Assembly: GCF_001598795.1 (NCBI RefSeq)
Contig: NZ_BCZP01000025.1
Location: 30,001 to 62,000 of the forward strand
Direction: 5' to 3'
From: Delftia acidovorans NBRC 14950
Lineage (GTDB): Bacteria; Pseudomonadota; Gammaproteobacteria; Burkholderiales; Burkholderiaceae_C
DNA length: 32,000 nucleotides
In this document: positions 7,610 through 29,241 of the stretch, in pieces
How the letters are laid out: each line of letters opens with the position of its first letter
How positions within the stretch are numbered: the stretch's first letter is position 1
Position numbers and translations under genes: made by a program
The notes under the pieces: model-generated
Databases searched by the model: none
The model's input: only the letters and a program-made list of their open reading frames with translations
What the model was told of the DNA's origin: nothing

Positions 7610-8020
7610 ATGGCAAATCGCAAAAATCCCCGGGCCGCCCTGGTCGCCCGCCAGGCCACCGACCTGGCCGTCGCAGCGCCCCAGGTCGTGGCCCATCGCC
7701 TCACCCGCATGGCCATGGCAGGCGCCAATCCCTCCGCGCGGGACCGGCGTGAATTCACACGCATGGTGTCCGAGAAACAGACAGCCTTCCAGCAATCCTG
7801 GACGGCGATGGGCATGCAGTCCATGGTTGCCAGCCAGGCCTTGATGCAGGCCTGGATGCGCATGTGCTGGACCCCCTGGAGCACCTCCACCTGGAACGGC
7901 GGAGCCCTGGCATCGCAGGCCTCGCAATGGCAAAACGCCATGTGGGGCGTGGTGGGCAAGGGCCTGGCCCCCGTGCACCGCACGGCGGTGGCCAATGCCA
8001 AGCGCCTGGCGCGCGGCTGA
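7610..8020 (+). CDS. Phasin-like (PHA granule-associated family) small protein; function uncertain
   Basis: ATG at 7610 preceded by AGGAG (7600-7604). VVAHRLTRMAMAG..PSARDRREFTRMVSEKQTAF and C-terminal HRTAVANAKRL resemble the family annotated as polyhydroxyalkanoate granule-associated phasin in Burkholderiales. This family assignment is from memory. Confidence 0.55.
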   Translation: MANRKNPRAALVARQATDLAVAAPQVVAHRLTRMAMAGANPSARDRREFTRMVSEKQTAFQQSWTAMGMQSMVASQALMQAWMRMCWTPWSTSTWNGGALASQASQWQNAMWGVVGKGLAPVHRTAVANAKRLARG

Positions 8021-8286
8021 GCGCGGCCAAGCACGGTTAAGTGCGACTGATCGCTGCTCAACGCGGCTGATCCACCCATATCAAGCCCGCTCCATTCACC
8101 GGAGCGCGGCCGCGCGGCAGGGCCGATGCGAGGGCGAGGTTCGGGTATCCTCGCGGCCTTCGTTCCGTTTTGCTGCGCTGCCGCATTTCCAGGCATGGAC
8201 TCCATGCAGAGACTGAAAACACGGCCGCGGCAGGCGGATTTCCCCCTTTCTGCCATCGCTTTGCCAGTCTTCCCCGGAGTTCTCTG

Positions 8287-9735
8287 ATGACACACAAGGC
8301 CCCGCCAACCGGCCAGGGCCTGCACGGTCAAGACGACCTGCAGCGCAATCTCACCAACCGCCATATCCAGCTCATCGCCATCGGCGGGGCCATCGGCACG
8401 GGCCTGTTCATGGGCTCGGGCAAGACCATCAGCCTGGCCGGCCCGTCCATCATCTTTGTCTACACCATCATCGGCGTGATGCTGTTCTTCGTGATGCGGG
8501 CCATGGGCGAGCTGCTGCTGTCCAACCTGCAGTACCGCTCCTTCATCGACTTCTCGTCCGACCTGCTCGGCCCCTGGGCCGGCTTCTTCACGGGCTGGAC
8601 GTACTGGTTCTGCTGGATCGTCACGGGCATTGCCGATGTGATTGCCATATCGGCCTACTCGCAGTTCTGGTTCCCCGACCTGCCGCAGTGGGCACCGGCC
8701 ATCGCCTGCGTGGGCCTGCTGCTGGGCCTGAACCTGCTGACGGTGAAGCTGTTCGGCGAGATCGAGTTCTGGTTCGCCATGATCAAGATCGTGGCCATCG
8801 TGGCCCTGGTGGGCACGGGGCTGTACATGGTGGGTGCCGCCTTCGTCTCGCCTGCGGGCCGCACGGCCAGCCTGTCCAACCTCTGGAATGACGGCGGCAT
8901 GTTCCCCAACGGGATGATGGGCTTCTTCGCGGGCTTCCAGATCGCGGTGTTCGCCTTCGTGGGCATCGAGCTGGTGGGCACCACGGCGGCCGAGGCCAAG
9001 GACCCCGAGCGCACGCTGCCGCGCGCCATCAATTCGATTCCCGTGCGCATCATCGTGTTCTACGTGCTGGCCCTGATCGCCATCATGGCCGTCACCCCCT
9101 GGCGCGACGTGGTGCCCGGCAAGAGCCCGTTCGTGGAGCTGTTCGTGCTGGCGGGCCTGCCGGCCGCCGCAGGCGTGATCAATTTCGTGGTGCTGACCTC
9201 GGCCGCCTCGTCGGCCAACAGCGGCGTGTTCTCCACCAGCCGCATGCTCTACGGCCTGGCGCTCAAGGGCGATGCGCCCCGGGCCTTCCACCGGCTGTCG
9301 CGCAGCAGCGTGCCCTCGCGCGGGCTGCTGTTTTCCTGCACCTGCCTGCTGGCCGGCGCGTTTCTGATGTGGGTGGTGCCCGATCTGGTGGAAGCCTTCA
9401 CGTTGGTGACCACGGTATCGGCCATTCTGTTCATGTTCGTGTGGTCGCTGATCCTGCTGTCGTACATGGCCTACCGGCGCCAGCGCGCGGCTCTGCATGA
9501 GGCTTCGCGCTACAAGATGCCCGGCGGCGTGGCCATGTGCTGGGCCTGCCTGGTGTTCTTTGCCGCCATCCTGGGCCTGCTCACCCTGCAGGCCGACACG
9601 CGCCAGGCGCTGGTGGTGACGCCGGCCTGGTTTGCCCTGCTGGCCATCGCCTACCAGTTCGTGCGCCGCCAGGCATCGCGCCAGTCGGCGGAGCGTTCCA
9701 CCGCCCTTGCAGGCACGGCAGCCGAACCGCGCTGA
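8287..9735 (+). CDS. cycA: D-serine/D-alanine/glycine-type amino acid permease (APC family, CycA-like)
   Basis: From MTHKAPP onward the protein is near-colinear with E. coli CycA as I recall it (LQRNLTNRHIQLIAIGGAIGTGLFMGSGKTISLAGPSIIFVY, FWFAMIKIVAI, FAGFQIAVFAFVGIELVGTTAAE, VINFVVLTSAASSANSGVFSTSRML). The ORF-track start at 8170 is an upstream in-frame extension. Confidence 0.9.
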   Translation: MTHKAPPTGQGLHGQDDLQRNLTNRHIQLIAIGGAIGTGLFMGSGKTISLAGPSIIFVYTIIGVMLFFVMRAMGELLLSNLQYRSFIDFSSDLLGPWAGFFTGWTYWFCWIVTGIADVIAISAYSQFWFPDLPQWAPAIACVGLLLGLNLLTVKLFGEIEFWFAMIKIVAIVALVGTGLYMVGAAFVSPAGRTASLSNLWNDGGMFPNGMMGFFAGFQIAVFAFVGIELVGTTAAEAKDPERTLPRAINSIPVRIIVFYVLALIAIMAVTPWRDVVPGKSPFVELFVLAGLPAAAGVINFVVLTSAASSANSGVFSTSRMLYGLALKGDAPRAFHRLSRSSVPSRGLLFSCTCLLAGAFLMWVVPDLVEAFTLVTTVSAILFMFVWSLILLSYMAYRRQRAALHEASRYKMPGGVAMCWACLVFFAAILGLLTLQADTRQALVVTPAWFALLAIAYQFVRRQASRQSAERSTALAGTAAEPR

Positions 9736-16825: not shown

Positions 16826-16854
16826 TCGTCACTGAACGCCCCGCCGTACAATCG

Positions 16855-17100
16855 CCGCCGTTGGTGCCAGCAGCCCCAGGGGCTGCGGTTAAACGGGAAA
16901 CATGGGGCGGCCAGATAAAGCTGCCCGCATGTACTGCCCCCGCAACAGTGAGTGAAACGCCGCGTGCATGGCACCGGCCCCCGCCAAACCCGTGCCACTG
17001 GGCGTACAGCCCGGGAAGGCCTTGGCGAGTGCGTCACCAGTCTGGATACCGGCCAACAGGCGGCCGGCCGCGCATGCAGCGCAGCCGGTCTTTGTGGTTT
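16855..17100 (+). promoter_or_regulatory. Cobalamin (B12) riboswitch with terminator-type expression platform
   Basis: Conserved elements appear in order: GGTGCC (16863-16868), GTTAAACGGGAA (16888-16899), CTGCCCCCGCAACAGTG (16934-16950), GCCACTG (16994-17000), GGGAAGGC (17013-17020) and the B12 box AGTCTGGATACCGGCC (17039-17054). A GC hairpin follows at 17062-17090, then TTTGTGGTTT (17091-17100). Confidence 0.85.
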
Positions 17101-17141
17101 CCGTGCCGGCGGGGTCGCTGGCGCGCAACTGGCTCGCATCC

Positions 17142-19064
17142 ATGCACACCCTCGCCCTCGCGCGCGCCCCTGGCGCCGCTCTTCGCTCGCCCTCGGCGTT
17201 TCCCGTACTGCGCACGTTGTCCGCCCTGGCTGCGGCCTCGCTGCTGGCCTGCCAGGCCCATGCACAGGCACAACAGGCACAACAGGCACAACAGGCGCAG
17301 CGCGCACAGGCCTCCCAGCTCGATACCGTGGTCGTCACCGCCTCGCGCAGCGAACAGTCCCTGCGCACCGTCACGGCCGACATGACCGTGATCGACGCCG
17401 AGACCATTGCCCGCAGCGGCGCCACCGGCGTGGCCGACCTGCTGGTGCAGGTGCCGGGCGTGCAGATCAACCGCAATGGCGGGCCGGGCCAGGTCACCTC
17501 GGTCTACCTGCGCGGCACCAGCAACCAGCACACTGCCGTGTTCATTGACGGCGTGCGCTACAGCTCGCAGGAGCTGCAGGGCGGCGCGGTCTGGTCCACC
17601 CTGCCGCTGGCGCAGATTGACCGCATCGAGGTGCTGCGCGGCCCGGCCGCCGCCATCTATGGCTCAGACGCCATGGGCGGAGTGATCCAGATCTTCACCA
17701 AGCGGGCGGACGGCCAGACCCGCGCCTATGCCGAGGCGGGCATAGGCAACCAGGGCACCAGCAAGCTGGCCACGGGATTTCAGGGCGGGGCCAACGGCTT
17801 CACCTATGGCCTGAACCTGGCGGACGAGCGCAGCGACGGCTTTGACGTCTACCCCGGCAACACCTTTTCGCCCAACCCGGACGAGGATGGCTACAGCAAC
17901 ACCTCGCTGGGCCTGAACGCGGGCTACAAAACGGGCATCCACCAGATCGATGCCAGCCTGCTGCACAGCCGCCTGCGCACCCACTACGACCAGAGCCCGC
18001 CGCCTTTCGACGACTACGACGTGGTCAAGAACACCACCGGCAGCCTGCGCTGGCAGGCCGGCTGGAACGCCATGTACAAAAGCGTGGTCCAGGTCTCCCA
18101 TACCGACAGCCAAAGCGACCGCCACACCCAGTCGCCCGAAAGCGCCAAGGGCCGCTCCACAAACTACCTGCTGCAGAACCTGTTCACGCTGGGCCAGCAC
18201 CGTTTCAACATCGACCTGGAGCGCCGCGAGGACAAGCTGGACACGCAATACGCCTGGACGCAGAACACCGACAGCCGGCGCGTGCAGAACTCCCTGTCGG
18301 CCGGCTGGCGCCTGACGGAGGGACGCCACCAGTTCGACGCCAACCTGCGCCACGACCAGGTGCGCGACCAGCAGAACAAGACCACGGGCGGGCTGGGCTA
18401 TGGCCTGCAGATCGACGAGCGCTGGCGCTGGGTGGCATCGGCCGGCACGGCCTTCAGAACCCCCACGCTGTACGAACGCTTCACGGGCCAGGCGGCGGCC
18501 GACCTCAAGCCAGAAAGCAGCACCAACGTGGAAACGGGCCTGCACTATGCGGCCGGTGCCAACCGCCTCTCGGCCGTGGTCTACCGCAACAAGTTCAAGA
18601 ACCTCATCACCTACGACTGGAACAGCGCCGTTCCCTGCAACTGCTACCGCAACTGGCAGAGCGTGGAGATCACCGGCCTGACGCTGTCGGGCAGCACGCG
18701 CCTGGGCAGCGCCAACCTGGGCGCCTCGCTGGACTTCATGAACCCCGAGAACCTGGAGACCGGCAAGCTGCTGCCCTACCGCTCCAAGCGCATGCTCAAG
18801 CTCAACGCCGACACCCAGGCGGCCGGCTGGACGCTGGGCGGCGAAGCGCAGCTGTACAGCGGCCGCTACGCAGACGAGGCGAATACCTTCAAGCTGGGCG
18901 GCTACGGCGTGGTCAACCTCTACGCCCAGCGCCAGCTGACCAGGCAATGGGCGCTGCTGGCCCGCGTCAACAACATCGCCGACCGCGACTACGCCCCCAC
19001 GCGCGGCTACGCCAACGCAGGCCGCACCGTGTTCGTCAGCGTGCGCTGGACTCCCCTGCCCTGA
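17142..19064 (+). CDS. btuB: TonB-dependent vitamin B12/cobalamin outer-membrane receptor
   Basis: It lies downstream of the B12 riboswitch. It has a signal peptide (LLACQAHA-QAQ), a TonB box LDTVVVTASR, a plug with IEVLRGPAAAIYGSDAMGGVIQIFTK and a barrel. The track start at 16968 lies inside the riboswitch, so I used the ATG at 17142. Confidence 0.88.
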   Translation: MHTLALARAPGAALRSPSAFPVLRTLSALAAASLLACQAHAQAQQAQQAQQAQRAQASQLDTVVVTASRSEQSLRTVTADMTVIDAETIARSGATGVADLLVQVPGVQINRNGGPGQVTSVYLRGTSNQHTAVFIDGVRYSSQELQGGAVWSTLPLAQIDRIEVLRGPAAAIYGSDAMGGVIQIFTKRADGQTRAYAEAGIGNQGTSKLATGFQGGANGFTYGLNLADERSDGFDVYPGNTFSPNPDEDGYSNTSLGLNAGYKTGIHQIDASLLHSRLRTHYDQSPPPFDDYDVVKNTTGSLRWQAGWNAMYKSVVQVSHTDSQSDRHTQSPESAKGRSTNYLLQNLFTLGQHRFNIDLERREDKLDTQYAWTQNTDSRRVQNSLSAGWRLTEGRHQFDANLRHDQVRDQQNKTTGGLGYGLQIDERWRWVASAGTAFRTPTLYERFTGQAAADLKPESSTNVETGLHYAAGANRLSAVVYRNKFKNLITYDWNSAVPCNCYRNWQSVEITGLTLSGSTRLGSANLGASLDFMNPENLETGKLLPYRSKRMLKLNADTQAAGWTLGGEAQLYSGRYADEANTFKLGGYGVVNLYAQRQLTRQWALLARVNNIADRDYAPTRGYANAGRTVFVSVRWTPLP

Positions 19065-22085: not shown

Positions 22086-22427
22086 ATGACACAGTCCCTC
22101 AAAGAACTCCTTGCGGCCAAGGCCGCGCTGGACATGGAAATTGCCAAGGCCCGCACCTCGGCGGCCGACGCTGCCCTGTCCAAGGTCCAGAAGCTGGTGA
22201 CCGATTTCGGGTTCACCCAGCAGCAAGTGTTCCCCTACATCCCTGAAAAAACCAGTGCGCCGGCGAAGTATCGCGATCCGGCTACGGGAGCGACGTGGAC
22301 AGGTCGAGGCAAGCCTCCGAACTGGATCAAGGACCAGGATCGCGACGACTTCCTCATCGAAAGCAAACCCGAAGCGGCCCAAGGCCCGTTTCTCGCCGAA
22401 ATGGCGGCAGCGGCAGCTCGCAACTGA
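22086..22427 (+). CDS. H-NS-family nucleoid-associated (xenogeneic silencer-type) protein
   Basis: 113 aa with an N-terminal coiled-coil (LKELLAAKAALDMEIAKAR) and the C-terminal DNA-binding motif KYRDPATGATWTGRGKPPNWI. I used the ATG at 22086; the track ORF begins earlier, at 21930. Confidence 0.88.
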   Translation: MTQSLKELLAAKAALDMEIAKARTSAADAALSKVQKLVTDFGFTQQQVFPYIPEKTSAPAKYRDPATGATWTGRGKPPNWIKDQDRDDFLIESKPEAAQGPFLAEMAAAAARN

Positions 22428-22503
22428 AAGCGCTGCACACGGCGGCACGCAGGATGCCGTGCGGTGCGGTGGAGTTCCGATGCGAAGGAATCTGTGCCTG
22501 CCG

Positions 22504-22539
22504 AAAAAAAGCCCTCTGAGCATTCAGCGGGCTTTTTTT
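22504..22539. terminator. Bidirectional Rho-independent terminator between the H-NS gene and the oxygenase operon
   Basis: An A7 run (22504-22510), a stem GCCCtCTGA/TCAGcGGGC with a 4-nt loop, and a T7 run (22533-22539). The structure is symmetric, so it can terminate both convergent transcripts. Confidence 0.7.
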
Positions 22540-22640
22540 CCGGCCTGGCGCCGGCGACGTAGTCACTTCCGGCATCTTTCGAGGGCGTGCATCGCGCTCC
22601 GGCAGGGGGATCAGCCGGGCCTTTGCGGCACCGCAAGCGC

Positions 22641-23015
22641 TCAGGCGTGGCTGACCGGGCAGCTGCCCGCCTTGCCCATGATGCTGTCCGCAGGCGCCTG
22701 CGCGCGGTCATTCAGTCCGTAGTCGCGCAGCACCTGGGTGACGCGCACGCGGTAGTCCTTGAAGATCTTGTCGCGGCCGGCGCGCTGGGCGCTGAGGTGG
22801 GCTTCCACGTTGCGCCACTGGACGACGGCTTCCTCATCGCGCCAGGTGGTGACGGACATGACTTTCTCGGGGTTGAGCGTGCTCTGGAAGCATTCCACGG
22901 AGATAAACCCCTCCATGGGCTTGAGCATGGGGGTGAGCTTGTTGACCAGGTCCACATAGGTCTGGTTCTGGCCGGGCAAGGCCTGCAGTTCGAACAGTAC
23001 GACAACCATCTTCAA
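22641..23015 (-). CDS. Antibiotic-biosynthesis-monooxygenase (ABM/Dabb-fold) family protein
   Basis: 124 aa. The pattern VVVLFELQALPGQ...GFISVECFQS...KVMSVTTWRDEEAVVQWRN..H is the ABM ferredoxin-like signature. AAGGAGAG precedes the ATG. This is the last gene of the operon. Confidence 0.85.
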   Translation of the reverse strand: MKMVVVLFELQALPGQNQTYVDLVNKLTPMLKPMEGFISVECFQSTLNPEKVMSVTTWRDEEAVVQWRNVEAHLSAQRAGRDKIFKDYRVRVTQVLRDYGLNDRAQAPADSIMGKAGSCPVSHA

Positions 23016-23103
23016 CTCTCCTTTTTTCGGGAACAGAGATTCCGGCGCCGCGCAGCGGCGGCTCCGGCGTGGGGGAAATGGGTGAATGGGCGGCGCCGCA
23101 GGT

Positions 23104-23808
23104 TCAGCGGCTGCGCGCCAGGTTGGTCAGCCAGGCGGCCAGCACATTGCGCGCGGCCAGGGCCAGCAGGCCGCCGTATTTCTGGGCATCGGCACGCAGG
23201 GTGCGCGGGTCCACCTGGGCGACGCCCAGTTCACAGGCATGGCCGACCAGCCAGCGCTCCAGCCGGGCCGCGTCGGCCTCCAGATGGAATTGCAGGCCCA
23301 GCACCTGCGGGCCCACGGCGAAGGCCTGGTTGGCGCCGATGGCGGTGCCGGCCAGGTGCACGGCGCCTTCGGGAATGTCGAACTGGTCGCCATGCCAATG
23401 GAGCACGGGCACGCCGTCCAGTTTGGCGAGGGGCGAGGCCAGGCCGGCGTCGGTGAGCGTGAGCGGCGAAAAGCCGATTTCCTTGACGCCCAGCGGGTAG
23501 ACCCTGGCGCCCAGCGCGCGCGCAATGAGCTGGGCGCCCAGGCAGATGCCCAGCAGCGGCTTGCCGCTGTCCAGCCAGCGGCGCACGGCCGCCAGCTCCT
23601 GGGCGACGAAGGGATAAAGCGCCTCGTCATAGGCACCTATGGGGCCGCCCAGCACGACAAGCAGGTCGGCACGGCCCAGGTCCAGGGTGTCAAGCTCGCC
23701 GATGCTGGGATCGACGTACTGCACTTCGTAGCCGCGGCTGGCGAACTCGGCATGCAGGGTGCCCAGGTCTTCGAAGTGGATGTGGCGCAGCGCGATGGCT
23801 TTTTTCAT
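23104..23808 (-). CDS. Class-I glutamine amidotransferase-like protein (stand-alone GATase1; possible gamma-glutamyl hydrolase)
   Basis: 234 aa from MKKAIALRHIHFEDLG. The nucleophile elbow is LLGICLGAQL (Cys89) and the C-terminal LQFHLE gives His175/Glu177. The track ORF 23104..24450 is a read-through extension into the upstream gene. Confidence 0.88.
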   Translation of the reverse strand: MKKAIALRHIHFEDLGTLHAEFASRGYEVQYVDPSIGELDTLDLGRADLLVVLGGPIGAYDEALYPFVAQELAAVRRWLDSGKPLLGICLGAQLIARALGARVYPLGVKEIGFSPLTLTDAGLASPLAKLDGVPVLHWHGDQFDIPEGAVHLAGTAIGANQAFAVGPQVLGLQFHLEADAARLERWLVGHACELGVAQVDPRTLRADAQKYGGLLALAARNVLAAWLTNLARSR

Positions 23809-23858
23809 GGGAAAACTCAGGTGGATACAGGAGGATGGCTTGGAACGTGCGGAGCCAG

Positions 23859-24938
23859 TCAGGCGCCGGGCTTGAGATCGACGTGGATATGGCCTGCCGA
23901 GGGGAAGGTGCAGCAGGCCAAGGCATAGCCGGCTTCCTTTTCCCTGTCGCTGAGGCAAAAGTCCGCCTCCAGCCGTGAACTGCCTCCCGTGATGCGGATG
24001 CGGCAGCTGCCGCAGATGCCGGCCCGGCACTGGCTGCGGATGGCAATGCCCACGCCTTCCAGGATTTCCAGCAGGCTTTTGCCGGACGCGGCTTCGACAA
24101 TCTGCCCGCTGTGCGCGATCTGCAGCTGGCATGCCTGCGCGGTCTCGCCTGGCTGGGCAGTGGATGCGGCAGGCGGCGTGAAGGCCTCGATGTGCTGTAT
24201 GGCACCGGGAAAGCAGGCCCGCGCATGCTCGCGAAAGGTCTGCGCAAAGGCGTGGCCGCCGCAGATGACCACCGCCTGGGGCTGGCCCAGCGCCAGCAGG
24301 GACTGCTGCGAGGGGCGGCCCGGCACGAAGGGGCCGTGGGCGGCAATGTCTTCGCGCGTGATGTGGATACGCAGGTCGAACCAGGGGGCCGTTTCGCACA
24401 GCTGCTGCAGCTCCTGCAGGAACGGAATGTCGGCCATGCGCGCAAAGCACAGCAGCAGCGTAGTGCGCGGCACGCGCCGGCCCTGCTGTTGCAGCCGGTC
24501 CAGTTCGCGCAGCAGCGCCAGCGGCAGGGTCAGGCCGATGCCGCCGGCCAGCATGACCAGGCAGTCCAGGCCCAGCACCAGGTCGGCCGTGATGTCACCG
24601 GCCACGTGGCCGAGCGGCAGCGTGGAGCCTGCGCGCAGCACCGCATGCATGTGGTCGGAGACGCTGCCCCGGCCCGAGCTTTTGACGGCAATGTCGAACT
24701 GGCCGGCGCCGTCGTGCTCGCTGCAGGGCTCGTAGCGGGTGATGGAGTACAGCCGCTGCTGCACGGCGCCACTGGCGTCGGGATGCTCGACGGCCACATG
24801 CCGACCGGGCCGCAGGCCGCCGAGGAACTGCGCCGAGGCGCCCTGCACGCGCAGGGTGTAGACCATGACGCCGCCCGCCTCTGCCCGTGCCGCGGCGCAG
24901 CGCGCCAGCGTGCTGCCTGCCTGGAGGGCGGCGCTCAT
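23859..24938 (-). CDS. FNR-type flavin/NAD(P)H oxidoreductase with C-terminal plant-type [2Fe-2S] ferredoxin domain (oxygenase reductase component)
   Basis: 359 aa with the RLYSIT flavin motif, the MLAGGIGLTLPL nucleotide-binding motif and C304-x4-C309-x2-C312-x29-C342. The start ATG overlaps the upstream stop as ATGA at 24935-24938. Confidence 0.9.
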   Translation of the reverse strand: MSAALQAGSTLARCAAARAEAGGVMVYTLRVQGASAQFLGGLRPGRHVAVEHPDASGAVQQRLYSITRYEPCSEHDGAGQFDIAVKSSGRGSVSDHMHAVLRAGSTLPLGHVAGDITADLVLGLDCLVMLAGGIGLTLPLALLRELDRLQQQGRRVPRTTLLLCFARMADIPFLQELQQLCETAPWFDLRIHITREDIAAHGPFVPGRPSQQSLLALGQPQAVVICGGHAFAQTFREHARACFPGAIQHIEAFTPPAASTAQPGETAQACQLQIAHSGQIVEAASGKSLLEILEGVGIAIRSQCRAGICGSCRIRITGGSSRLEADFCLSDREKEAGYALACCTFPSAGHIHVDLKPGA

Positions 24939-25897
24939 GCCTGCATCTCCTCGAGGACCGAGGACACCAGCGCCACGCTGCCGCCCAGGTTGCGGCCCGC
25001 AAGGCCGATGCGGTCGATCAGGCTTTGCACCGAGTCGGTGTAGACGCCGATCTCGTTGCTGTCGCCCACGTCGTGCAGGATGTCGCGCGCATGCGGCATG
25101 CCGACCATGGTGAAGACGGTGGACCAGGCGCCCAGTTCGTTGTTGGCGAACATCTGCACGGTCTTGAGGATGATGGAGCGCAGGTAGCTGCGCTCGCGGT
25201 TGCTCAGGCCCTGGACGATGTCGGTGGCCACCGAGCTGAAGACGCTGGAGTGGCTCCATTCGTCCACGGCGTGGGTGCGCGTGACCTCGTGGCAGATGGG
25301 CTGGATGGAGCGGTCCTCGGCCATGGTCTTGAGGTAGTCGGTGATCAGGGTCTCGCTGGCACAGGCAATGGCGAAGCGGGCCAGGCGGCGCTCCCATTCC
25401 GCGCCGCACTGCGCCAGCACGCCGTTGCGCCAGCCGACGAGGTTGAAGTCCGCGTAGTCCAGCGGCGCCAGGCCGCGCATCTCGTAGATGTAGTTGCAGG
25501 CCATGATGGACATGCGGGTGTGCAGGGCCTCGTCCAGCAGGGCCTGGGACATGACGTCCTGCAGCAGCGCCCGGTTGGCGCTGGGCGGCGGGGTCTTGAT
25601 GATGTCCTCGCAGGCCGGCGTGACCACGTTGCACTCGATGTAGATGGTCTTGAGGTTGTAGATGCCCCAGGCGTAGGACAGGCATTGGTCGCGCAGGTGC
25701 TGTGGCGCCTCCACCCATGCCTGGTGGTCGCGAAACGGCAGCAGCGAGGCGGTGAAGTCCTGCCGGGCGGGGTCGAACGCCAAGCCGCAGTAATCAGGCA
25801 GGTCCTGATTCACGGCCGCTCTTGACTTCCAGAGCAGGGACAGCTTTTTGAGCGCATCGCGCACGGCGTCATCTGTCCGAGAGATATCGAGATTCAT
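24935..25897 (-). CDS. AurF-family (ferritin-like) non-heme diiron oxygenase
   Basis: 320 aa. Candidate ligands are E88, E123-x2-H126 (DEALH), E182 (SETL) and H209-x3-E213-x2-H216 (HAVDEWSH). Their spacing matches the AurF set E101/E136/H139/E196/H223/E227/H230 as I recall it. Extended colinear similarity to AurF is seen by eye (RAAVN..DY, EWERR...ETLI, IQP). Confidence 0.85.
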   Translation of the reverse strand: MNLDISRTDDAVRDALKKLSLLWKSRAAVNQDLPDYCGLAFDPARQDFTASLLPFRDHQAWVEAPQHLRDQCLSYAWGIYNLKTIYIECNVVTPACEDIIKTPPPSANRALLQDVMSQALLDEALHTRMSIMACNYIYEMRGLAPLDYADFNLVGWRNGVLAQCGAEWERRLARFAIACASETLITDYLKTMAEDRSIQPICHEVTRTHAVDEWSHSSVFSSVATDIVQGLSNRERSYLRSIILKTVQMFANNELGAWSTVFTMVGMPHARDILHDVGDSNEIGVYTDSVQSLIDRIGLAGRNLGGSVALVSSVLEEMQA

Positions 25898-25980
25898 TTT
25901 TCAACTCCGTGTAATTGAACTTGGTTGATCTGAGTCAAATCGCCTATTCCCTCCCCCCGCTTTCTCCATCCGCCGCAATC

Positions 25981-26052
25981 ACCAATGGCGCTGCAAATGA
26001 CGATGCAAATGACGATGCACATGGCGCTTCAAATGACGCTGCAGATGGCAGA
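25981..26052. repeat. Six tandem 12-bp units (consensus about GCAAATGACGMT) in the divergent control region
   Basis: The units are ACCAATGGCGCT, GCAAATGACGAT, GCAAATGACGAT, GCACATGGCGCT, TCAAATGACGCT and GCAGATGGCAGA, read directly from 25981-26052. They lie 84-155 bp upstream of the oxygenase start. Confidence 0.8.
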
Positions 26053-26415
26053 TACGTTGTCATGGATTTCTTCACTCTGTCATATTCCGCCTTGAATCAA
26101 TCTGCCCGACTGCAAATTGCGGATGATTCCTGGCGGTATTGAATCTCATGACTTTCAACGTCTGGCGGCGAATTCTATGGAGACAGCGTGGATTCAAACA
26201 GACCTATTTTCGTCAATGAACCAGACCGCTTTTTCAACGGTTTACATTGGCATGCCACCTTAATTGGTCTGCTCACCCGCTGAAACATGGTCGGAATCAA
26301 GGCAGCTGCACTTTGTAGACTGCCCATTACCGATGCGCCCTGGTTTCCAAATCCTTCCATAACCCGGGCGCTGCCGATTCCCGTGCTTCAGCGCCTCCAA
26401 GACAGCCAATGCGAC

Positions 26416-27696
26416 ATGGACGATTTATCGCTCCCCAAAATCAATTCACTGGATCTTCAACAGGCAGACAGCGAGGCCTGGGATGCCATCGCGGCCGAGC
26501 GGATTCGCCAGTCGCGCTCGATTGAATTGATTGCCTCTGAAAACTTCGTGAGCCGCGCGGTGATGGAGGCGCAGGGCTCGGTGCTGACCAACAAATACGC
26601 CGAGGGCTATCCGGGCGTGCGCTACTACGGCGGCTGCGCCAATGCCGATGCCGTCGAGAACCTGGCCATTGCGCGTGCCAAGGCGCTGTTCGGCTGCGCG
26701 CACGCCAACGTGCAGCCGCATTCGGGCAGCCAGGCCAACCAGGGCGTGTACCTGGCCTTTCTGGAGCCTGGCGACAAGATCATGGGGCTGGACCTGCGCT
26801 CGGGCGGGCACCTGACGCATGGCTCCCGCGTGAGCGTGTCGGGCAAGTGGTTCCAGTCCATCAGCTACGAGGTGGACGCCCGCTCCCAGCGCATCGACAT
26901 GGACCAGGTGCGGCGCATTGCGCTGAAGGAGCGGCCCAGGCTCATCATTGCCGGTGGCTCGGCCTATTCACGGCAGATGGACTGGGCCGAGTTCCGGCGC
27001 ATTGCCGACCGGGTGGGCGCCATCTTCATGGCCGACATCGCGCACGTGGCGGGGCTGGTGGCCGCGGGCGTGTTCCCCTCCCCCGTGGAGCACGCCCATG
27101 TGACCACGACCACCACGCACAAGACGCTGCGCGGGCCGCGCGGCGGCATGATCCTCTCGGCCGACGCCGAGATCGCCAGGCGCATAGACGCCGCCGTGTT
27201 TCCGGGCCTGCAGTCCGGGCCGCTGATGCATGTGGTGGCGGCCAAGGCGGTGGCGCTGGGCGAGGCGCTCAAGCCCGCCTTCCGCACCTATGCGCGGGCC
27301 GTGGTGGACAACGCCCGCGTGCTGTGCGACCGGCTTTCGCAGGGCGGACTGTCCGTGGTCTCCGCAGGCACGGACTGCCATCTGGGCGTGATCGACCTGC
27401 GCCCCTGGGAGCTGACGGGCAAGGCCGCCGAAACGGCGCTGGAGCAGATCGGCATCACGGTCAACAAGAACGCCGTGCCCGGCGATGGCGCGCGGCCGCT
27501 GGTGACCTCGGGCATCCGCGTGGGCAGCGCGGCCTGCACCACGCGCGGCATGGGCGCCGACGAGTTCCGCGAGATCGGCGACATGATTCTTGCCACGCTG
27601 GGCGGCATACGCAGCGGCACCATGAACGCGCGCACGCTCAAGTCCATCCACGAAGGCGTGTCCGACCTCACCGGGCGCTTTCCCCTGCCCTATTGA
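26416..27696 (+). CDS. glyA: Serine hydroxymethyltransferase (PLP-dependent)
   Basis: Canonical SHMT: [57 protein letters not shown] and the PLP-lysine motif [18 protein letters not shown] chose the ATG at 26416 (MDDLSLPK). The track start at 26287 adds an implausible 43-aa extension. Confidence 0.92.
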
Positions 27697-27726: not shown

Positions 27727-29241
27727 TCAGGGTTTTCGCAGCGCGTTGGCCAGGCGCAGCACGGCGGCCTCGATCTCGTAGGCCGTGAGGGAGGCATAGC
27801 CCAGCAGCCAGCCCGGCTGCCGCTGCTCGCCCGCGTACAGGCGGCTGAGCCCCTGCAGCAGCACGCCGGCCGCGGCGGCGCGGCGGATAGTGTCTTCCTC
27901 GGACCAGCCGGGCTCCAGCAGGCAGGGCACCTGCATGCCGCCCTGGGGCCGTGGCGCGGTGACGATGCCGGCCAGGTGCCTGCCTATGGATTCGAGGATG
28001 ACCTCGCGCCGCCCCGCGTACAGCTTGCGCATGGCCCGCACGTGGGAGTTGTAGTGGCCGTCTTCCATGAAGCGCGCCAGCGTCAGCTGCTGGATCTGGG
28101 GCGTGTGCCCGTCCATGATGCTGCGCGCCTGGACAAAGGCGCGCACCAGCTCCTGCGGCAAGGCCATGTAGCCCATGCGCAGGCCCGGGTACAGGGTCTT
28201 GCCGAAGGTGCCGATGTAGATGGTGCGCCCGTGCTTGTCCAGGCCTTGCACGCAGGCGGTGGGCATGCCGTCGTAGTGGAATTCGCTGTCGTAGTCGTCC
28301 TCGATGATCCAGCGCCCGCTCTCGAACGCCCATCGGATCAGGTCCAGCCGCCGCTCCAGCTGCATGGTGACGCCCGTGGGGTACTGGTGCGATGGCGTGA
28401 CGTAGACGCAGGTGGCGCCGCTGCGGTCGGCATGCAGCAGGTCCGTGCGAATGCCTTGCGCGTCCACGTCGATGGGCAGGACCTTGGCCTCCGCCGACTC
28501 GAAGGCCTTGCGGGCGCCGAAGTAGCCGGGGTTCTCCAGCAGGATGGGCCGGCCCGCGTCCACCAGCAGCTGCGCGCACAGGAACAGCGCCTGCCGCGTG
28601 CTGCTGAGCACCACGATCTGCCCGGCGTCCACCTTGGCGCCGCGCTCCAGGTTGAGGTAAGTGGCAATGGCCTTGCGCAGCGGCTCGGCGCCCTGCGGGT
28701 CGCCGTGCAGCAGGACGCTGGCGCGGTAGTCCTTGAGCGCCTGCCGCTGCAGCCGCTCCCAGACATCGGTGGGAAAGGTTCGCGTCTCGGGCAGGCCGGT
28801 GGCAAAGGCCCGAATGGTCTGCTGGTCGGCGATGCCGCCGCCGTCAACAATGGCCTGGCCGCGCCGGCTCAGGCCGGCACCGGCCCTGCCCGCTGCGGCC
28901 ACCTGGGCGCTGCGCTCGTGCTCGGGCGACCGGCCGCGCCGCGCCGCCCGGCCCCGCAGCTCGGTGCCGATGGTCTCGGAGACATAGCTGCCCGATCCCT
29001 GGCGCCGCACGATGAAGCCGTCGCGGTGCAGCTGGGTGTAGGCGTTCTCCACCGTGTCGCGGGCAATGCCCAGCGAGTCGGCCAGCGAGCGCGTGGCCGG
29101 CAGCTTCAGGCCGGGCAGCAGAGCTCCGTCCAGGATGAGCGCACGCATGGCGCGCTGCACCCGCTGGTGCAGGTCCAGCTGGCGCAGGTCGGCATCTCCC
29201 ATGCGGATCTTCAGGGTCTCAAGCTCGAAGGTCTTGCTCAT
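27727..29241 (-). CDS. MocR-subfamily GntR regulator (wHTH fused to PLP-dependent aminotransferase-like domain)
   Basis: 504 aa with an N-terminal GntR wHTH (LPATRSLADSLGIARDTVENAYTQLHRDGFIVRRQGSGSYV), a linker and a fold-type-I aminotransferase domain (YGDPQG, SHQYPTG, IYIGTFGKTLYPGLRMGY). Confidence 0.9.
   Translation of the reverse strand: MSKTFELETLKIRMGDADLRQLDLHQRVQRAMRALILDGALLPGLKLPATRSLADSLGIARDTVENAYTQLHRDGFIVRRQGSGSYVSETIGTELRGRAARRGRSPEHERSAQVAAAGRAGAGLSRRGQAIVDGGGIADQQTIRAFATGLPETRTFPTDVWERLQRQALKDYRASVLLHGDPQGAEPLRKAIATYLNLERGAKVDAGQIVVLSSTRQALFLCAQLLVDAGRPILLENPGYFGARKAFESAEAKVLPIDVDAQGIRTDLLHADRSGATCVYVTPSHQYPTGVTMQLERRLDLIRWAFESGRWIIEDDYDSEFHYDGMPTACVQGLDKHGRTIYIGTFGKTLYPGLRMGYMALPQELVRAFVQARSIMDGHTPQIQQLTLARFMEDGHYNSHVRAMRKLYAGRREVILESIGRHLAGIVTAPRPQGGMQVPCLLEPGWSEEDTIRRAAAAGVLLQGLSRLYAGEQRQPGWLLGYASLTAYEIEAAVLRLANALRKP

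Follow-up and report, generated by a model that had tools for sequence, protein, structure and literature searches.

The DnfABC ('Dirammox') system of Alcaligenes ammonioxydans HO-1 and A. faecalis JQ135, in which ammonia is oxidized to N2, is the closest described counterpart of the genes considered here. The published cluster is dnfT1-R-T2-A-B-C-D, in which the genes dnfT1-R-T2-A-B-C are assigned to a transaminase, a MocR-type regulator, a serine hydroxymethyltransferase (SHMT), a diiron N-oxygenase, a 2Fe-2S reductase and a glutamine amidotransferase (GATase; PMC9136411), and dnfABC alone were found to be sufficient in E. coli (PMC9136411; 2020 preprint). The preprint described DnfB as a protein with ferredoxin (Fd) as well as ferredoxin reductase (FdR) domains that is encoded immediately near dnfA and likely carries electrons to DnfA. 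Subsequently, DnfA was characterized as a diiron protein that shares 28–30% identity with AurF and CmlI; DnfB was described as a protein with FNR-like and 2Fe-2S parts 'shuttling electrons' (JBC 2022, PMC9478400). A later study named DnfB an electron shuttle protein and showed glutamine to be an obligatory intermediate (ISME J 2024). According to Sci Adv 2024, which cites Xu 2022 and Miao 2023, hydroxylamine production is lost in dnfAB knockouts, and DnfAB hydroxylates the amide of glutamine in vitro to glutamate γ-hydroxamate, which is hydrolyzed by DnfC. In mLife 2025, each of dnfA, dnfB and dnfC is stated to be essential, and Pseudomonas, Delftia and Microvirgula are given as genera with homologues; carriers named in ISME J 2024 are Delftia lacustris, Pseudomonas cedrina, Andreprevotia, Jeongeupia, Pokkaliibacter, Xanthobacter and others. 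The present analysis concerns a stretch of 32,000 nucleotides, referred to as the window, from an assembly catalogued as Delftia acidovorans NBRC 14950 (GCF_001598795.1, contig NZ_BCZP01000025.1, positions 30,001 to 62,000), and in it two overlapping genes for an AurF-family oxygenase and a flavin/[2Fe-2S] reductase. We regard it as very likely that this pair represents the Delftia dnfA and dnfB genes, coding for the oxygenase and the reductase of the published DnfABC system in a conserved dnfR/dnfT2/dnfA-dnfB-dnfC locus.

Several other described systems resemble single components of this locus. The window DnfA has the Pfam family, the fold and the 3-His/4-carboxylate diiron site in common with AurF from S. 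thioluteus and CmlI from S. venezuelae, but the substrates of the latter differ, being arylamines that are oxidized to nitro groups. To our knowledge, the AurF and CmlI gene clusters contain no cognate reductase, and these enzymes were reconstituted with surrogate reductants. In the actinobacterial TsnB7/TsnB6/TsnB9 system (trichostatin, benzohydroxamate), an AurF-like oxygenase converts L-glutamine to glutamyl hydroxamate by N-hydroxylation of the amide, as proposed for DnfA, and a second enzyme then takes off or transfers the NH2OH unit, which is a further likeness to the dnf system. However, the helper protein TsnB6 is by description an accessory subunit, in contrast to the FNR/[2Fe-2S] reductase of dnf, and the NH2OH unit is passed to a carboxylate by an AsnB-like enzyme instead of being released by a class I GATase. 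DnfB shares the three-domain order and the cofactor motifs with phthalate dioxygenase reductase, GbcB, PaaE and Hcr, but its partner is an AurF-family diiron protein, whereas the partners of reductases of these types are a Rieske oxygenase, PaaA or Hcp. Reductases of the MmoC/BenC type follow the same logic, with an NADH/flavin/[2Fe-2S] protein feeding a carboxylate-bridged diiron oxygenase, but have the [2Fe-2S] domain at the N-terminus, opposite to the order in DnfB, yielded only partial matches (1krh) and serve an unrelated hydroxylase family.

The oxygenase–reductase pair of the Delftia locus

Both genes are located on the minus strand. The dnfA orthologue (24935..25897) codes for a non-haem diiron oxygenase of 320 amino acids with 76% identity to Alcaligenes DnfA, and the dnfB orthologue (23859..24938) for a reductase of 359 amino acids, assigned as NADH-dependent from its Pfam domains and motifs, with 49% identity to Alcaligenes DnfB over 357 amino acids. 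In the Alcaligenes locus (L001), the genes for the regulator (+), the SHMT (–), the AurF-type oxygenase (+), the Fer2 reductase (+) and the GATase (+) follow each other, and the Delftia window is the mirror image of this arrangement, with the same order and relative orientation of R-T2-A-B-C. The identities of the encoded proteins to their Alcaligenes counterparts are 78% for R, 61% for T2, 76% for A, 49% for B and 66% for C; in addition, the ATGA junction between dnfA and dnfB, the diiron ligands and the domain order of DnfB are common to both genera. The DnfA encoded in the locus of Delftia tsuruhatensis NBRC 16741 (L003) is 100% identical to the window DnfA, and the window was accordingly assigned to Delftia tsuruhatensis in this analysis. 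By analogy, the Delftia genes would work in the same way as the dnf genes of Alcaligenes.

The PF11583 (AurF) profile of Pfam is matched end to end by the window DnfA with E=1.1e-57. All seven diiron ligands listed for DnfA in the literature (PMC9478400), E88, E123, H126, E182, H209, E213 and H216, are present in the window protein and were invariant in two alignments of close and distant relatives. The placement of the protein among the AurF-family diiron proteins in the initial annotation is borne out. The NCBIfam equivalog model diiron_AurF (NF045603), which has a cutoff of 620 bits, gave 107.5 bits for the window DnfA, and as judged by this score the protein is not an AurF equivalog. It is far nearer to Alcaligenes DnfA than to AurF or CmlI, and its genomic context consists of dnfR, dnfT2, dnfB and dnfC and not of a biosynthetic cluster. 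The PDB matches of DnfA included CmlI (5hyg, E=2e-32) and AurF (3chh, E=1.5e-25), and no structure of DnfA or DnfB was among the PDB matches.

DnfB combines an FNR-like flavin/NAD part with a C-terminal 2Fe-2S domain, and its gene lies directly downstream of dnfA. Pfam domains were assigned to residues 26–107 (FAD_binding_6), 125–197 (NAD_binding_6) and 275–346 (Fer2), and the cofactor motifs RLYS (62–65), GGIGLTLP (132–139) and C304-x4-C-x2-C-x29-C342 are intact. The protein aligns colinearly over its full length with 2pia, the structure of phthalate dioxygenase reductase (matched over residues 68–346), and with 7ylr, and the sequence of flavin barrel, central NAD domain and C-terminal plant-type 2Fe-2S domain is that of the phthalate dioxygenase reductase class, as had been recognized in the initial annotation. 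DnfB remained below every NCBIfam equivalog cutoff, with scores of 85 vs 383, 76 vs 500 and 75 vs 421 bits and the Hcr-like, GbcB and PaaE models all far under threshold. The flavin was given as FMN in the 2020 preprint, but as FAD in the JBC paper (PMC9478400).

A 4-nt overlap on its own is an ordinary operon junction. Here, tcat at 24935–24938 of the plus strand reads ATGA on the coding strand, where the ATG start codon of dnfB (24938–24936) overlaps with the TGA stop codon of dnfA (24937–24935), and the overlap noted initially can thus be read directly from the sequence. A GAGGAG Shine-Dalgarno sequence for dnfB (24947..24952, minus strand) is located within the 3' end of dnfA, 8 nt 5' of the dnfB ATG; AGGAGG is found at the equivalent site in Alcaligenes, and the Alcaligenes locus has an ATGA junction of the two genes as well (8951–8954 of L001). 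The reading frame of dnfB is open upstream as far as 25718, giving rise to an ORF of 619 amino acids, and ORF calling alone therefore leaves the dnfB start unfixed. The predicted start at 24938 is supported by ATGA junctions in 36 related loci and by the homology of the N-terminus with that of Alcaligenes DnfB; the 619-amino acid ORF was rejected as an artefact of the kind common in DNA of such high GC content (67%). As read from the sequences, the overlap indicates coupled translation of dnfA and dnfB, yet not necessarily in a 1:1 ratio. Reductases of this kind normally work catalytically. Of the 'stoichiometric co-expression' initially deduced from the overlap, the coupling of translation can therefore be kept, whereas the 1:1 stoichiometry was an over-reading, considering that DnfB was present at about 1% of DnfA in some of the published assay mixtures (PMC9478400).

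Conservation of the pair among PF11583 relatives

The distribution of the pair was surveyed in one genome per GTDB species with a DnfA-clade alignment, which yielded 68 loci with relatives 37–100% identical to DnfA. A DnfB-like gene was found beside the DnfA-like gene in 64 of them: 54 loci had it co-directional and directly downstream, four had it downstream with an intervening gene or as a fragmented match, and in six loci of marine gammaproteobacteria (DnfA 37–39% identical) it was nearby on the opposite strand. The four loci lacking a DnfB-like gene came from three Moraxella and one Proteus, the latter with a truncated DnfA-like gene. A survey of PF11583 members for adjacent reductases had been set beforehand as the test that could refute the initial description of the pair as a new two-component system, and its outcome was that the pairing is common in the DnfA clade and has already been described. 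The reductase-paired AurF-family system taken for undescribed is DnfA/DnfB, which has been in the literature since 2020 with Delftia as a named carrier, and the pairing of oxygenase and reductase belongs to the standard description of the dnf system.

The 4-nt overlap (ATGA or GTGA) was present in 36 of the 68 loci, and in 34 of the 36 loci in which DnfB is at least 42% identical. It was lost mainly in divergent variants, including loci without DnfC; of the two exceptions in the more similar group, the Xanthobacter locus (L032) likewise shows ATGA at the junction, but its match to DnfB is fragmented. Since the overlap was kept across alpha-, beta- and gammaproteobacterial loci with differing flanking bases, its conservation is, by comparison of these sequences, beyond chance. 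DnfC accompanied the A/B pair in 50 loci, while the pair of MocR-type regulator and SHMT was restricted to Delftia, Alcaligenes, fluorescens-type Pseudomonas and one related proteobacterial metagenome-assembled genome.

Some of the loci deserve separate mention. In Xanthobacter sp. NM-59 (L032), the DnfB-like match at approximately 7936–8517 is split in two, pointing to a frameshift, a pseudogene or a fault in the assembly. The DnfA-like gene of Proteus columbae (L059) is truncated at about residue 207 and has no DnfB-like neighbour. In Motilimonas, Endobugula, Colwellia, Shewanella and Paraglaciecola (L062–L064, L066, L067 and L070), DnfA-like proteins with 37–39% identity have DnfB-like and DnfC-like counterparts that are encoded close by, but on the other strand, and these marine loci represent a rearranged dnf module. 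Three loci contain pairs of DnfA-like (59–69%) and DnfB-like (30–35%) genes without DnfC: in Pectobacterium (L036), the neighbours code for an arylamine N-acetyltransferase, a serine hydrolase, a major facilitator superfamily transporter and an ATP-grasp protein; in P. syringae (L046), they code for a class II aldolase and a dihydrodipicolinate synthase, and a TauE gene is inserted between A and B; in Paraburkholderia (L049), an AsnB-like asparagine synthase, which recalls TsnB9, and an EamA transporter are encoded nearby.

Relatives outside the DnfA clade were sought with phmmer among 1.8 billion cluster representatives, which gave 305 family clusters at E≤0.001. A profile from a divergent alignment of 38 PF11583 sequences matched almost only DnfA-clade proteins, and a second PF11583 profile was built without DnfA-clade members. 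Eight genomic contexts outside the clade, from cyanobacteria, Teredinibacter and metagenomes and with roughly 25–35% identity to DnfA, were inspected. None of the eight contained an adjacent FNR or Fer2 protein, indicating that the reductase partner characterizes the DnfA clade rather than PF11583 as a whole. The premise of the initial annotation, according to which the characterized AurF-family N-oxygenases have no obvious cognate reductase, is fair, but the exception to it was already known. An adjacent class I GATase was encoded in five of the eight contexts (L071, L072, L074, L076 and L078), suggesting a widespread AurF+GATase module without a dedicated reductase. One of these AurF+GATase loci adjoins ammonium transporters and one a non-ribosomal peptide synthetase, and in Teredinibacter a rubredoxin is encoded two genes away. 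Among the long family representatives examined, no fusion of AurF with a reductase was found; the fusions observed were with ATP-grasp, aminotransferase and TauD domains.

Proposed electron path and alternative explanations

The following scheme takes the electron-transfer role of DnfB, the essentiality of the genes and the glutamine route from the literature. The flavin of DnfB would accept a hydride from NADH, and the C-terminal plant-type [2Fe-2S] cluster would hand single electrons to the diiron site of DnfA. Diferrous DnfA would then activate O2 and N-oxygenate an amide or amine nitrogen, according to the published proposal the amide nitrogen of L-glutamine with formation of L-glutamate γ-hydroxamate. 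Hydrolysis of the hydroxamate by the GATase DnfC would release hydroxylamine, which may be converted to N2 either via DnfA or abiotically. The ATGA overlap together with the internal Shine-Dalgarno sequence would couple translation of dnfB to that of dnfA. DnfB is very probably the cognate reductase of DnfA, as the initial annotation had proposed, in view of the adjacency of the genes in 64 of the 68 loci, the conserved overlap and the role described in the literature.

The assignment of the pair to the DnfABC system is based on orthology, synteny, the intact ligand and cofactor motifs and the conserved pairing and overlap, all of which were obtained in this analysis. A number of observations weigh against it. 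DnfB is the least conserved component (49% identity), and Delftia lacks dnfT1, with a gene for a BenE transporter at this position, as well as dnfD, the place of which is taken by an ABM-fold gene. Turnover of DnfA without DnfB was obtained with free FAD/NADH, phenazine methosulfate (PMS) or spinach Fd/FdR (PMC9478400; 2020 preprint), so that DnfB is no strict requirement in vitro. Binding of glutamine to DnfA was not seen by isothermal titration calorimetry or differential scanning fluorimetry (ISME J 2024), and the true substrate of DnfA is therefore disputed. N2 may also be formed from NH2OH largely abiotically (ISME J 2024; mLife 2025). Two rival explanations were considered. The Delftia locus might consist of homologous genes that act in another pathway, for example towards a hydroxamate or another N-oxygenated metabolite, instead of oxidizing ammonia to N2. 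The absence of dnfT1 and dnfD, the presence of the ABM-fold gene and the occurrence of closely related A+B pairs (A 59–69%) without DnfC in clearly different contexts in Paraburkholderia, Pectobacterium and P. syringae would be compatible with this, and Sci Adv 2024 argues that the dnf cluster has a biosynthetic look. We nevertheless consider it very unlikely, because the R-T2-A-B-C core is syntenic with Alcaligenes at 61–78% identity (B 49%), dnfABC alone is enough in E. coli and Delftia tsuruhatensis strains are in use as heterotrophic nitrifiers. Even less probable, to a degree that we hardly reckon with it, is that DnfB is not dedicated to DnfA but has a catalytic or protective role of its own, e.g. 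similar to Hcr, while general cellular donors reduce DnfA. The activity of DnfA in vitro with FAD/NADH, PMS or phenazine ethosulfate, and spinach Fd/FdR, the distant AurF+GATase modules without an adjacent reductase and the best NCBIfam match of DnfB, an Hcr-type NADH oxidoreductase (PRK10684) far under the cutoff, could be taken in its favour. However, the adjacency of the genes and the conserved 4-nt overlap argue for a dedicated partner, the locus codes for no further redox partner, and the literature reports that dnfB is genetically essential for the pathway (mLife 2025; Sci Adv 2024) and that DnfA and DnfB together hydroxylate glutamine in vitro.

Returning to the ATGA overlap, mere genome compaction without translational coupling or an effect on expression is a less favoured explanation, but one that should be kept in mind. 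Overlaps of 4 nt are generally the commonest overlap class in bacterial operons, and with its good Shine-Dalgarno sequence dnfB could be initiated independently. Compaction alone would, on the other hand, poorly explain why the overlap persists in 34 of the 36 loci with DnfB at least 42% identical, in three proteobacterial classes and with varying flanking bases, and is lost mainly in divergent variants.

Remaining genes of the locus and significance

The dnfC orthologue (23104..23808, minus strand) starts 50 nt downstream of dnfB and codes for a class I GATase of 234 amino acids (PF00117). It scored 340 bits against a cutoff of 250 with NCBIfam PRK07053, is 66% identical to Alcaligenes DnfC and contains the catalytic Cys, His and Glu residues, with the nucleophile motif GICLG at residue 87 and HLE at residue 175, both placed exactly as in the Alcaligenes protein. 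Divergent from dnfA on the plus strand, the dnfT2 orthologue (26287..27696; PF00464, E=4.7e-161) codes for an SHMT paralogue with 61% identity to Alcaligenes DnfT2, compared with 51% to the other Alcaligenes SHMT. The 43 N-terminal residues encoded by 26287–26415 (+) have no counterpart in Alcaligenes DnfT2; this comparison makes M44 (26416) the probable start, and the divergent intergenic region would then span about 518 bp. Next to it, the dnfR orthologue (27727..29241, minus strand) codes for a MocR-type regulator with a GntR helix-turn-helix domain (PF00392) and an aminotransferase fold (PF00155), which is 78% identical over 503 amino acids to Alcaligenes DnfR, the regulator of dnfABC (PMC9136411). 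For the full dnfT1RT2ABCD set, dnfT1 (Aminotran_5 family, a phosphoserine-type transaminase in Alcaligenes) and dnfD (pyridoxal kinase family) are missing: no match to either was found in the two Delftia loci of the survey (L003, L004), and the BenE-family transporter is encoded beyond dnfR. Since dnfABC alone suffices according to the literature, their absence leaves the membership in the core system intact.

In the control region between dnfA and dnfT2 (25898..26286), one sigma-70-like site was detected on the plus strand at 26057–26086, whereas an Rfam scan of this region revealed no RNA element. An alignment of the upstream regions across genera showed conservation of the Shine-Dalgarno sequence and of no other motif. 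The scan of 22400–26500 for terminators found none. At 25985–26047, a 12-nt unit (ATGRCGMTGCAA) is repeated in tandem about five times, corresponding to a Met-rich codon run on the plus strand. This array was considered as a possible DnfR operator or Met-rich leader peptide, but rejected as a conserved element, because D. acidovorans, Alcaligenes and Pseudomonas lack it; it is thus a repeat specific to the species rather than a conserved operator. Farther away in the window, a cobalamin riboswitch (RF00174, 61 bits) at 16846–17071 (+) overlaps the start of a 698-amino acid ORF (16968–19064) that is followed by a periplasmic-binding-protein gene (PF01497, 18947–20011), and this region is probably a B12 uptake operon.

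The ABM-fold gene (22641..23015, minus strand; PF03992, E=4.5e-16) occupies the slot of Alcaligenes dnfD and codes for 122–124 amino acids, with the true start probably at 23009. In the loci of both Delftia and Pseudomonas it immediately follows dnfC, and its product is 81–86% identical between the two genera, compared with 72–76% for DnfA, 49–52% for DnfB and 63–69% for DnfC. The protein corresponds to no NCBIfam equivalog, and a literature search for a pairing of an ABM-fold gene with dnfABC returned nothing. The Delftia/Pseudomonas locus may conceivably be a distinct variant of the pathway, in which the ABM-fold protein replaces DnfD, but we consider this unlikely; in such a variant, the ABM-fold protein could be a fourth working component, acting for example on hydroxylamine or on the hydroxamate intermediate. 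As a separate point, DnfB appears to be a clade-specific addition to the far more widespread AurF+GATase module without a reductase.

The presence of the ABM-fold gene in place of dnfD is the sole mildly new point of this analysis. As a discovery, the pair itself carries little weight, because DnfA and DnfB are already accepted to be an AurF-family diiron oxygenase and the flavin/[2Fe-2S] reductase belonging to it. The residual value is descriptive: while the reductase is absent from the distant AurF+GATase modules sampled, the adjacency of dnfA and dnfB and their 4-nt junction are hallmarks of the dnfABC clade across the Proteobacteria.

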